The notes beneath the pieces were generated by a model. The model worked only from the letters and a program-made list of their open reading frames with translations. It made no database searches and had not been told where the DNA came from. Position numbers and translations under genes: made by a program. A stretch of DNA of 64,000 nt, from the sequence record NC_024125.2. One strand, written 5' to 3'. Positions 33,825 to 35,623 of this stretch are shown in pieces (within the stretch, counting starts at the first letter, position 1; every line of letters begins with the position of its first letter). This stretch comes from Escherichia phage vB_EcoM_112.

Positions 33825-33843
<19 letters not shown>

Positions 33844-34313
33844 TCAGTGATAAAGTTATTTAAATTTTGAGCGTATTTCTTTTCATCAAAAATCTTTTGC
33901 TGTCTGCGTAAACGCCATGGCATTTCAATGAACACGCACCATATTCCTGATAATATTGCTGCTGTAAAAATATTAACAAGTATGGTTAAAAGAATCCAAT
34001 CTCCTATTCTGTCCATTGGATTTTTTATAAAAAAGTAAAATACGAATGATGTCACAGGAAGACTAATAATATACCACAGAATCATAATTTTATCTGTGAA
34101 CCAATCAGCGTTCGTTAACTTAGCGCGACCATTATGAATACACACGAATTTATCATCTGTTATAATAGATGGCTTAGCTGCTTGATATCCCATTCTAAAC
34201 TCCCTAATCAACAAATTTTTCATATCTTCGGAACAACCATTCCAGTCAACTCTATCAACTGAAATGCCATCATCCCCATCATCTAAATCATACCAGCGAG
34301 TTTTTAAAATCAT
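33825..34313 (-). CDS. membrane protein (tandem family)
   Basis: 162 aa, two hydrophobic helices, C-terminal ...FITECRKLK. Confidence 0.5.
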
Positions 34314-34672
34314 TTAATTTTCCTACAATCACTCACAAACTCTTCCATTGATTCTTTTTCAATATAAGACATGTAGCTATTATATTCCTTTAATTGTATT
34401 TTGTAATCCTTTTTTCTTTGCCAATTTATTTTAAAATTATCATAATGAAAATATAACATGGTACCAAAGAATGAAAATAATGAAATCGCTATAGTATAAC
34501 GAAGTTCACTCCAAACCTCTGTTATAATTACTGTGCCGTCAATGTTTAAAATAAAACAGTCAATTAACAATCCAATAAGACTACCCGCAAGAGCTGCAAA
34601 TACTGATACAGCAAGAATTAATAGTGACTCAGGAAACGAATATTTGACTTTATTTAATTTTGGCTTTTGCAT
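34310..34672 (-). CDS. membrane protein (tandem family)
   Basis: 120 aa, two TM helices, C-terminal ...FVSDCRKIK. Confidence 0.5.
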   Translation of the reverse strand: MQKPKLNKVKYSFPESLLILAVSVFAALAGSLIGLLIDCFILNIDGTVIITEVWSELRYTIAISLFSFFGTMLYFHYDNFKINWQRKKDYKIQLKEYNSYMSYIEKESMEEFVSDCRKIK

Positions 34673-35046
34673 CGTGATTCCTTAACAAATTTCATAATTT
34701 CATTAAATTCATACATATCTAGTTTAAGCTGGTGTTCCTTTTTAATCTTTTTACACTGAGCTTTCCAATCGCGTACACGTTTACGATAATGCCTTCCTTG
34801 ATACCAGTATCCTACCCAATTTACGGGTACTAATAAAAGTGGAACTATTAATGGAAGAATTAGCATTAACACAAGTATTTCGCCAGAATCAATATCAGTC
34901 ATAACATCTAAAACACCTCCAATAATCAATAGAATTACAAATGATATGAGTATAACAGGACCTATTAACACATCAGTAGAAATTATCTGACGCTTTAATT
35001 CATACTTCAACGGTTTACTTGGAAGGTATAGTGATGGTTTTGACAT
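34654..35046 (-). CDS. membrane protein (tandem family)
   Basis: Start set at MSKPSLYL; two TM helices, C-terminal ...FVKESRCKSQN. Confidence 0.45.
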   Translation of the reverse strand: MSKPSLYLPSKPLKYELKRQIISTDVLIGPVILISFVILLIIGGVLDVMTDIDSGEILVLMLILPLIVPLLLVPVNWVGYWYQGRHYRKRVRDWKAQCKKIKKEHQLKLDMYEFNEIMKFVKESRCKSQN

Positions 35047-35623
35047 ATTCTCTACATTCCTTAACAAATTTTTCTAGTAATAAATCACTTTCAAAATTGG
35101 GATTTTCTACAAATTTATCAAAAAGATCATCAACAATAGTTAAGATATTCTTTTTACTAAGAATACGTTTATTTTCATGCTTCGTTTCAGAATCAACTAT
35201 AAGAGTAAAGAAATATTTCTTGCCCTGAAATTTTACAGTAGTATCAATATAAAATAAATTTGACTTTTGTAAATTACGTTTAAACCATGCGTCACTTAAA
35301 CTATAAACACCGAGATAATCAAAATCGTCGTTTAAATAACAAACTGTCCATTCAGGAGAAATGAAATCAGTAAATTCAACATCAAAATCACATGTTAATG
35401 AATAAATTGATTCAATACTGTTAATAAGTATTCCAGGACGTATTAAAGACTTTTTACCTCTAGAAAATCTTCCAGAAAGACTTTCATCAGTTTCATATGA
35501 AGAACCCCAATAATAATTACGTCCTTCTGCCATACGTTTAAGAGCATTTAGTAATTGGTCTGGAACATCAACCTGTCTTTGAAACTCTTCAAACATTGAA
35601 TTGAAATCACTTTGCATTTTCAT
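35015..35623 (-). CDS. hypothetical protein
   Basis: 202 aa; C-terminal ...FVKECREYV resembles the neighbouring family tails. Confidence 0.5.
   Translation of the reverse strand: MKMQSDFNSMFEEFQRQVDVPDQLLNALKRMAEGRNYYWGSSYETDESLSGRFSRGKKSLIRPGILINSIESIYSLTCDFDVEFTDFISPEWTVCYLNDDFDYLGVYSLSDAWFKRNLQKSNLFYIDTTVKFQGKKYFFTLIVDSETKHENKRILSKKNILTIVDDLFDKFVENPNFESDLLLEKFVKECREYVKTITIPSK

Follow-up and report, generated by a model that had tools for sequence, protein, structure and literature searches.

Positions 33,825 to 35,623 of a 64,000-nucleotide stretch of Escherichia phage vB_EcoM_112 (NC_024125.2; one strand, 5' to 3'; the whole stretch is called the window below) hold four small overlapping genes, read on the minus strand, that correspond to the early genes e.5, e.4, e.3 and e.2 of phage T4. 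Near their C-terminal ends the four products carry a peptide of about ten residues built around F-[IV]-x-[ED]-C-R, degenerate in e.4, and it is this tail motif, its coding DNA and its possible function that are analyzed here. The source of the window is a Tequatrovirus, that is, a T4-like phage. The DNA of the region (2.4 kb around the finding) was matched at 92-98% identity by 512 phage records, almost all from Tequatrovirus, and the records of RB51 and T4 name the genes nudE, e.2, e.3, e.4, e.5 and e.6; in an older T4 entry the genes of the e region are labelled msp8 to msp3 (msp3 being e.6). The proteins e.2-e.5 are 76-100% identical to their Tequatrovirus orthologues, and gene order and overlaps are identical to those of T4. 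The genes themselves are already known and catalogued, and those of the window are ordinary orthologues. Few viruses have been studied as thoroughly as T4, and yet about half of its genes, e.2-e.6 included, are without known function. The genes, listed as open reading frames (ORFs) with lengths in amino acids (aa), and the codons of their tail motifs are arranged as follows.

35015..35623, minus strand: e.5 (T4 Y06P, 202 aa), ORF with the tail LLEKFVKECREYVKTITIPSK.
35051..35068, minus strand: motif of e.5, FVKECREYVK, residues 186-195; codons TTT GTT AAG GAA TGT AGA.
34654..35046, minus strand: e.4 (T4 Y06O, 130 aa from the ATG), ORF ending in KFVKESRCKSQN; fuller tail EIMKFVKESRCKSQN.
34669..34689, minus strand: degenerate motif of e.4, FVKESRC; codons TTT GTT AAG GAA TCA CGA TGC.
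34310..34672, minus strand: e.3 (T4 Y06N, 120 aa), ORF ending in EFVSDCRKIK; fuller tail SMEEFVSDCRKIK.
34322..34339, minus strand: motif codons of e.3, TTT GTG AGT GAT TGT AGG.
33825..34313, minus strand: e.2 (T4 Y06M, 162 aa), ORF with translation, intact.
33837..33854, minus strand: motif codons of e.2, TTT ATC ACT GAA TGC AGG.
33388..33828, minus strand: nudE (Nudix hydrolase, 146 aa), whose start MKTLS overlaps the e.2 stop as ATGA.

Successive genes overlap by 32, 19, 4 and 4 nt (e.5/e.4, e.4/e.3, e.3/e.2 and e.2/nudE), and as e.5-e.2 are co-oriented and overlapping their translation is probably coupled. The pattern F[VI].[DE]CR, which was defined after the data had been seen, is found exactly three times among the 127,996 six-frame positions of the window, compared to 0.10 expected from an amino-acid-frequency model and a mean of 0.125 (maximum 2) in 200 shuffles. 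All three matches lie in the true frames of e.2, e.3 and e.5, near the stop codon, and only about 0.001 ORFs would be expected to hold the pattern within their last 20 residues. The extended consensus reads hydrophobic(-3)-[DEN]-x-F-[IV]-x-[ED, rarely G or M]-C-[RK]-[KEN]. In e.5 the protein does not stop at FVKECREYV, as the sequence-only reading had it, since eight further residues, KTITIPSK, follow. When one genome each of Tequatrovirus, Mosigvirus and Gaprivervirus was scanned in full, the strict motif appeared only in this syntenic region, its copies grouped within some 1.2 to 4.6 kb; moreover, positions 1-50,000 of T4, imm and sp included, are devoid of the motif in real ORFs.

Several other sequences resemble the tail. 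A relaxed form, YVSLCRKHW, in the thymidine kinase gene tk (26750-27331) is conserved in all three genera and is unrelated to the tail motif; presumably it is part of the conserved Cys/His cluster of the enzyme. The ending YDIACREI of a 79-aa Mosigvirus protein is absent from the Dhakavirus and Gaprivervirus homologues and is therefore taken as chance. A soluble 109-aa protein of Dhakavirus VR5, encoded upstream of the e.2 region (L007:325-654; L008:1-178), ends in FLEYCRSDVQL (tail KLFLEYCRSDVQL), which is again a relaxed motif. Within e.4 itself, residues 91-100 (34747-34776) read DWKAQCKKIK; the pattern W-K-x-Q-C-[KA]-K is kept in Mosigvirus and Gaprivervirus and has the aromatic-to-Cys spacing of the tail motif, of which it may be a second or ancestral copy.

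How does the motif relate to the gene boundary in which it is encoded? As had been noticed from the letters alone, the motif codons serve at the same time as Shine-Dalgarno and start region for the gene that follows, which is seen at the junctions of e.3 to e.2 (TGTAGGAAAATTAAATGA) and of e.2 to nudE (TGCAGGAAATTAAAATGA). In the e.5 motif AAGGAA is the likely Shine-Dalgarno sequence of e.4, the ATG of which (35046-35044) lies in the Y-V codons just downstream, and the e.4 motif holds both the AAGGAA Shine-Dalgarno sequence and the ATG of e.3 (34672-34670). In e.3 the repeat TGTAGGAAA (34319-34327) includes the e.2 Shine-Dalgarno sequence AGGAAA, with the stop/start overlap ATGA at 34310-34313; in e.2 the repeat TGCAGGAAA (33834-33842), which is the second copy of a direct repeat and lies 485 nt from the first, includes the Shine-Dalgarno sequence of nudE. 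Purine-rich K/E/R codons of the motif are thus used as Shine-Dalgarno sequence of the next gene. Alignment at the nucleotide level found the junctions to be related, with 15-17 of 24 positions identical in four of the six gene pairs (e.5/e.4, e.5/e.3, e.5/e.2 and e.3/e.2), compared to 7.0 +/- 2.3 of 24 in random in-frame coding pairs. The sequence-only reading had named unrelated junctions and a chance alignment of the tails as the findings that would speak against it; the junctions are related and the tails are not aligned by chance, so neither applies. The RNA at the four junctions, folded in 91-nt pieces, is no more stable than its shuffles (z = +1.4, -1.6, +0.6 and +0.2), and promoter-like sites show no excess (23 versus 19.6 +/- 4.6 in shuffles).

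It could be imagined that the tail merely translates a repeated cassette of Shine-Dalgarno sequence, spacer and start codon, or a recent duplication of the junction, and has no function as a peptide. Such an origin would account for R-K being encoded as AGGAAA and K-E as AAGGAA, for the ATGA overlaps in or beside the motif, for the 16 identical nucleotides common to the tails of e.5 and e.4 (AAATTTGTTAAGGAAT) and for a junction identity well above the null value. However, F, I/V and C lie outside any Shine-Dalgarno sequence and are nonetheless invariant, and comparison with other genera points the same way. An exhaustive phmmer search with e.2 returned relatives at 27-36% identity, all of which end in F-I-x-x-C-R-[KN] (FIKECRK, FIEECRK, FIKMCRNS, FIKGCRK, FIKGCRNGHN and FITECRNLR). 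Members of the family share an N-terminal domain of the form W-x-x-x-DD-x-x-x-G...V-x-W-x-x-C, followed by a pair of transmembrane helices and the tail; just 14-16 columns are invariant, and F, I, C and R account for four of them. Among 45 clusters of e.3 within Tequatrovirus, F, C, R and K are invariant and the x positions variable. In Mosigvirus, the e.5 tail reads QFIMECREYVK, e.4 ends in EFVKEIRCKSLNS, and e.3 ends in NFIKECRK and is followed by an unrelated gene; in addition, Mosigvirus has a fifth carrier of the motif in the same region, an unrelated 101-aa two-helix protein that ends in NFIKECRGK (tail NLENFIKECRGK). The e.2 proteins of Dhakavirus and Gaprivervirus end in FIEECRK, with CGT as arginine codon, the Shine-Dalgarno sequence on the E-E codons GAGGAA and a different downstream gene. 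In Gaprivervirus TH40 the syntenic set was found by a motif scan, tblastn having missed e.3-e.5; hhalign probabilities for the orthologues are 97% (e.3), 98.6% (e.4) and 62% (the e.5 analogue), and their tails read FIKECKS, FIKEVRNGTA and FITECREYAKG, respectively. An early idea that some genera possess e.2 without e.3-e.5 was withdrawn, as Gaprivervirus does have these divergent syntenic orthologues. There, the start codon of e.4 is displaced by 18 nt in the downstream direction relative to T4, and ECREYAK is still kept.

Across the genera Phe alternates between TTT and TTC, Cys between TGT and TGC, and Arg between AGG, AGA, CGT, CGA and CGC, a codon turnover for which the cassette explanation fails to account. 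The Shine-Dalgarno sequence falls on different motif residues (K-E as AAGGAA, E-E as GAGGAA, R-K as AGGAAA and R-G-K as CGAGGAAAA), and the genes downstream vary as well (e.2, nudE, a 78-aa, a 101-aa and a 228-aa gene). Even so, the motif is retained in relatives with 21-53% identity, namely those of Mosigvirus, Dhakavirus, Gaprivervirus and metagenomes. Codon turnover, shifted Shine-Dalgarno sequence and differing downstream genes together argue for purifying selection on the peptide. The suggestion that the conservation reflects a duplicated junction cassette therefore does not hold as the main cause, and we consider a tail that is only a by-product of the junction very unlikely. As judged from these comparisons, the tail module is maintained by selection on the peptide and not on the DNA, and the ribosome-binding site makes use of any purine-rich K/E/R codons that the motif happens to provide. 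The proteins around the motif evolve at very different rates. Identities to the Mosigvirus and Gaprivervirus orthologues, respectively, are 88% and 75% for e.6, which is encoded directly upstream of e.5, 47% and 21% for e.5, 53% and 33% for e.4, 39% and 26% for e.3, 30% and 36% for e.2, 62% and 63% for NudE and 83% and 69% for lysozyme e. The motif is thus a conserved island in fast-evolving proteins beside a very conserved neighbor. At 75-88% identity across three genera, e.6 surpasses both lysozyme e and NudE in conservation, although it has not been assigned to any family. Between e.3 and e.2, Mosigvirus (L004:3857-4651, L009:1856-2650) and Gaprivervirus (TH40 110412-109390) hold another set of small paralogues, three or four soluble proteins of 65-101 aa that end in G-x-W-[VI]-x-S-S-x-x-C directly before the stop codon (one of four in IWYPSSC), and most of these genes continue directly with TAAGGAA.

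A related proposal is that the motif does act in the ribosome, as a nascent peptide, or that the junction RNA folds, in order to pause termination and promote re-initiation on the downstream gene. The motif is always found 15 or fewer codons ahead of a stop that overlaps or adjoins the start of the following gene, and it is common to otherwise unrelated proteins, as such an element would be. However, its distance to the stop ranges from 1 to 15 residues and the junction folds do not go beyond their shuffles; to our knowledge the motif bears no resemblance to known arrest peptides. We regard this proposal as extremely unlikely.

Where in the cell would the tails be located? The three smaller proteins had each been credited with two hydrophobic helices, which is correct for e.2 (76-96 and 103-131, behind an N-terminal cytoplasmic domain of roughly 75 aa) and for e.4 (about 26-49 and 57-81) and does not hold in the same way for e.3, in which a strong helix (about 17-43) is accompanied by a weaker one (about 59-75). 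The basic cytoplasmic tails of e.2, e.3 and e.4 were confirmed, with net charges of +6, +2 and +9, respectively. The N-termini of e.3 and e.4 are also basic, and the loop between the helices is neutral in e.2 and acidic in e.4. This charge distribution suggests an N-in/C-in topology with the motif on the cytoplasmic side; by prediction only, e.2, e.3 and e.4 would each form a small hairpin in the inner membrane, with N- and C-terminus both facing the cytoplasm. In e.5 and e.6 no hydrophobic helix was detected by hydropathy, and e.5 is soluble, its maximum 19-residue Kyte-Doolittle mean being 0.97. On a helical wheel the four hydrophobic motif positions cluster in an arc of 100 degrees (40-140 degrees), at the center of which lies the Cys. 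According to the AlphaFold2 model of e.2 (pLDDT 73), a single helix (103-160) comprises the second transmembrane segment and the tail, and in that of e.5 (mean pLDDT 59) the motif lies within the last helix (181-196). Foldseek found no match for the e.2 model in the PDB at E <= 0.001. For the e.5 model the top matches were RelP/RelQ small alarmone synthetases and other nucleotidyltransferases, at E of about 0.01, a TM-score of about 0.24 and an rmsd of 16 A for a model of pLDDT 59; inspection of the e.5 sequence by eye revealed no RelA/SpoT-type synthetase motifs and a PDB sequence search nothing of note. These structural matches are too weak to be used for an assignment of e.5 as alarmone synthetase, curious as they are beside the gene of a Nudix hydrolase.

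The motif DNA is also a site at which genes are lost. Phage T2 lacks exactly e.2, through a loss of 485 bp with the crossover in TGCAGGAAA, that is, in the two direct-repeat copies TG[TC]AGGAAA mentioned above. The T2 e.3 tail GAGTGATTGCAGGAAATTAAAATGA is e.3-like through GATTG and e.2/nudE-like from AGGAAATT onward; it encodes the chimeric ending FVSD/CRKLK and is fused to the start of nudE. The T2-type junction was present in about 14 of 60 evenly sampled records of 188 matches, corresponding to roughly 44 records, an estimate obtained with a 60-nt query that was not ideally centered. This number agrees with the difference between the Tequatrovirus records with e.3 (about 497) and with e.2 (about 446). 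Since e.2 is found near nudE in other genera too, the T2-type loss is a derived deletion. The repeat in the motif DNA thus serves as microhomology at which whole genes are lost. Further changes were found elsewhere in the region. In UFV06 (OP555980; L003:2526-2846) and UFV11 (H180), a natural in-frame fusion joins the first 31 residues of e.4 to the last 75 of e.2 (TSFVFYFF onward). The joint lies in an 8-nt microhomology (TCCTGTGA), e.3 and the N-terminal domain of e.2 are lost, and the 106-aa product is also a cluster representative (P0061). In laboratory T4 (MT984581; L005:3360-3850) the loss of one base in an A-run (ATAAAAAATCC to ATAAAAATCC) truncates e.2 to 102 aa, the remaining 60 codons, tail motif included, being still readable in another frame.

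Did the tail spread by duplication of whole genes? The sequence-only reading spoke of an array of paralogues, for which the comparisons give no proof, as profile-profile alignment brings together the tails alone. BLASTP between e.2, e.3 and e.4 aligned 14-24 tail residues (E = 0.005-0.1) and did not extend to full-length paralogy. With hhalign, e.2 and e.3 align over 17 tail columns (probability 69%) and e.3 and e.4 over 37 (53%); for e.2 and e.4 the alignment of 22 tail columns reached only 2.6%. A relic of tandem duplication could still be considered, in which e.2, e.3, e.4, the Mosigvirus 101-aa gene and the tail of e.5 derive from one hairpin-plus-tail gene by unequal crossing-over at the junction. 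The genes are adjacent, co-oriented and of like architecture, and the two better hhalign tail alignments would be remnants of the common ancestor, as perhaps would the internal W-K-x-Q-C-K-K of e.4, which weakly resembles the motif. Moreover, recombination in this region occurs in nature: the e.4::e.2 fusion of UFV06 is joined in frame at P-V, where the first transmembrane helix begins, and the T2 deletion documents exchange between junction repeats. On the other hand, there is no significant similarity beyond the tails, the e.2 to e.4 comparison is particularly poor, e.5 is soluble with an unrelated body, and drift alone would not have preserved just these ten residues. As separate orthologues of every gene exist in four genera, any duplication would have to predate the split of those genera. 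We therefore hold this origin to be possible, with the doubts prevailing; it concerns where the motif came from and is compatible with a functional motif.

What could a selected peptide at the end of such different proteins do? The explanation that on balance appears probable to us joins to the selected peptide, the Shine-Dalgarno sequence and the recombination microhomology a role of the tail module as cytoplasmic amphipathic helix for docking or assembly. The fast-evolving e.2-e.5 would bind via the tail to one common conserved partner, or to each other, and e.6 would be the most obvious candidate for such a partner. Docking is suggested by the occurrence of the same peptide on unrelated bodies, on the same side of the membrane and at the end of a helix, and furthermore by the co-transcription of overlapping genes, an arrangement typical of products made in fixed proportions, by the synteny in four genera and by the unusual conservation of e.6. 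Several points weigh against it. In e.4 orthologues F, V/I, K, E and R are kept and the position of the motif Cys is occupied by S, I or V, so that not every member needs the Cys; T4-type e.4 has a Cys directly after R, which would be on the opposite face of the helix and is absent in Gaprivervirus (FIKEVRN). The distance between motif and stop codon is 1, 2, 3, 11 or 15 residues, and the motif is thus not strictly a C-terminal tag. Being frameshifted in laboratory T4 and deleted in T2-type phages, e.2 is dispensable, and any complex would not need all of its members. Both structure models are of modest to low confidence. A common origin by duplication would in itself explain the presence of the motif, albeit not its persistence. 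Finally, any partner of the docking helix is hypothetical.

A stronger version of docking would have e.2-e.5 and the Mosigvirus hairpin plug into one slowly evolving cytoplasmic hub, most plausibly e.6. We consider such a universal plug unlikely. If it were true, it would represent a modular membrane system of T-even phages not described before, the variable membrane and periplasmic parts of which would face the host envelope or rival phages, with modules that could be swapped by recombination at the very DNA that encodes the motif.

Instead of a docking surface, the invariant Cys and the adjacent Arg/Lys might form a site that binds a metal ion or an iron-sulfur cluster between tails, or that is subject to redox or thiol modification. 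The Cys is invariant in the e.2, e.3 and e.5 families, the cytoplasmic N-terminal domain of the e.2 family has a second invariant Cys (C27), and e.5 and e.4 have one further conserved Cys each. However, each motif offers a single Cys, with no CxxC and no His partner, e.4 orthologues manage with the replacements mentioned above, the position of the Cys in the middle of the hydrophobic face fits helix packing, and no metal-binding family was matched. A metal or redox site seems improbable to us.

The role proposed by the sequence-only reading was a different one, namely that the hairpins act in the timing of lysis, like holins or antiholins, or in superinfection exclusion. As inner-membrane proteins of an early transcription unit with the lysozyme gene at its end they would be well placed, and their rapid divergence fits a conflict with hosts or competing phages. 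Searches in Pfam, PHROGs, NCBIfam and PADLOC, however, found no similarity to holin, antiholin, Imm or Sp; imm and sp are at other T4 loci (T4 annotation), and the T4 lysis and exclusion genes t, rI and rIII also lie away from e.2-e.5. Moreover, laboratory T4 has only an inactive e.2 and T2-type phages have none, and we know of no phenotype in either case. This role appears quite doubtful. Of the rival readings, only the relic of duplication, as origin of the motif, and the physiological roles are retained as candidates.

With regard to families, the four proteins are direct orthologues of T4 e.2-e.5 (UniProt Y06M, Y06N, Y06O and Y06P), except that e.2 is intact here with 162 aa as compared to the frameshifted 102-aa form of laboratory T4. 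In the databases they form separate families with no assigned function, and the annotations seen make no mention of a shared tail motif. By tblastn e.2 is 76-100% identical to Tequatrovirus e.2, T4 included, and belongs to the T4 e.2 family Phage_T4_Y06M (PF26896), with which its phmmer relatives P0069, P0071 and P0072 are annotated by precomputed Pfam labels. The protein e.5 belongs to Phage_T4_Y06P (PF26876), a label carried by proteins 94-98% identical to it, and e.4 to Phage_T4_Y06O (PF26873), being 53% identical to e.4 of Mosigvirus S143_2; PF26873 is also assigned to the 124-aa product of e.4 at the syntenic position in the Mosigvirus-like contig L009. The Pfam names of e.2, e.4 and e.5 are precomputed hits from a newer Pfam, the copy scanned directly being one that lacks the PF26896 model. 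Scans of e.2-e.6 against Pfam, NCBIfam and PADLOC gave nothing above threshold, and PHROGs returned only their own function-less families (2203, 2330, 2604 and 2607 for e.2-e.5). In PADLOC zero families were found at E <= 1 for e.2-e.6, and no membership in a defense or anti-defense family could be assigned. A likeness of e.6 to PspA/IM30 was considered and found no support in sequence comparisons: there was no match to Pfam PspA_IM30 and no PDB sequence match at E <= 10, and hhalign of e.6 with E. coli PspA gave a probability of 0.3%.

Among known systems, the closest parallel to the loss of e.2 appears to be the modular gene shuffling in T4-type phages that is mediated by PeSL cassettes (promoter-early stem-loop elements), which are intergenic, about 100 bp long and contain a strong sigma-70 promoter and a terminator stem-loop (PMC2839356, PMC4122927). 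In both cases short boundary elements that include Shine-Dalgarno sequence and start codon allow whole ORFs to be removed or inserted with the neighbors unharmed, as in the T2-type loss of e.2. The e.2-e.5 junctions are nevertheless not PeSLs, as they have no intergenic space, promoter or stable fold and the genes overlap by 4-32 nt. Furthermore, the e.2/e.3 repeat consists of 9-14 nt of coding sequence, and a crossover yields a chimeric but intact tail. By analogy, the shuffling of cassettes at boundary elements may thus extend from intergenic PeSLs into coding sequence.

Short C-terminal docking motifs are well known from the clamp-binding tails of T4 gp43, gp55 and gp33 and from the C-terminal tip of SSB. 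They resemble the e.2-e.5 tails in being short conserved end peptides on otherwise unrelated proteins, as is expected if there is one partner, and differ in sequence, to which there is no resemblance; the e.2-e.5 motif is helical, amphipathic and Cys-bearing, and most of its carriers are membrane-anchored. Imm, Sp, RI and holin T are likewise small membrane proteins of T-even phages, but they are encoded at other loci and have no detectable homology to e.2-e.5, and we know of none among them that carries the tail motif. A search of open-access text for e.2-e.5 and for the 'e-segB intergenic region' found nothing. Relative to the annotations and open-access papers, the shared motif, its conservation across genera in spite of codon turnover, its presence in at least five families and its triple role were not found described. 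A ten-residue peptide that is the most conserved feature of four or five fast-diverging neighbors in four genera provides an experimental handle, and sharing it suggests that the genes work together or on the same target. The same stretch of DNA is under three pressures, as protein motif, as ribosome-binding site and as recombination microhomology. The tail motif is thus a modest but real lead into a function-less block of T4 genes.

The remaining features around the four genes are the following.

36286..36313, minus strand: sigma-70-like promoter match (TTTACA, 16 nt, TATTAT), upstream of e.6.
35665..36258, minus strand: e.6 (T4 Y06Q, 197 aa), soluble and probably helical.
35644..35659, no strand assigned: GC-rich hairpin GGGGCUUCGGCCCC (minus-strand sequence) between e.6 and e.5, a putative stem-loop in the T4 GenBank entry.
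32856..33350, minus strand: e (T4-type lysozyme, 164 aa), ORF at the downstream end of the gene string.

The promoter match coincides with the promoter annotated ahead of msp3, that is e.6, in the T4 record L13089 and is likely the start of the e.6-to-nudE transcript. The hairpin has no T-run on the coding strand. For nudE a longer ORF, reaching to 33843, would be opened by an out-of-frame ATG inside the E-C codons GAATGC of e.2. T4 records annotate this longer frame, RB51 and T2 records use the MKTLS start, and the orthologues of other genera favor the shorter form. Several product names given to genes of the e region in GenBank/nr are unsupported and could be cleaned up, among them 'sulfurtransferase' (e.3, e.4), 'DNA primase' (e.3), 'host specificity protein' (e.6), 'major capsid protein' (a truncated e.4 in T2 AP018813), 'phosphoserine phosphatase' and 'valyl tRNA synthetase modifier' (Ip4). 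Directly abutting lysozyme e is an ORF for an Ip4-like internal protein (32288-32761). The genes denV, ipII and ipIII of T4 are not at this spot, and tblastn found no denV in the window; the arrangement is T2-like. The Ip4-like protein begins with MKTYQEFITEA, which is similar to a capsid-targeting sequence, and the EFITE therein resembles the NFITEC of the tail motif, probably by chance.

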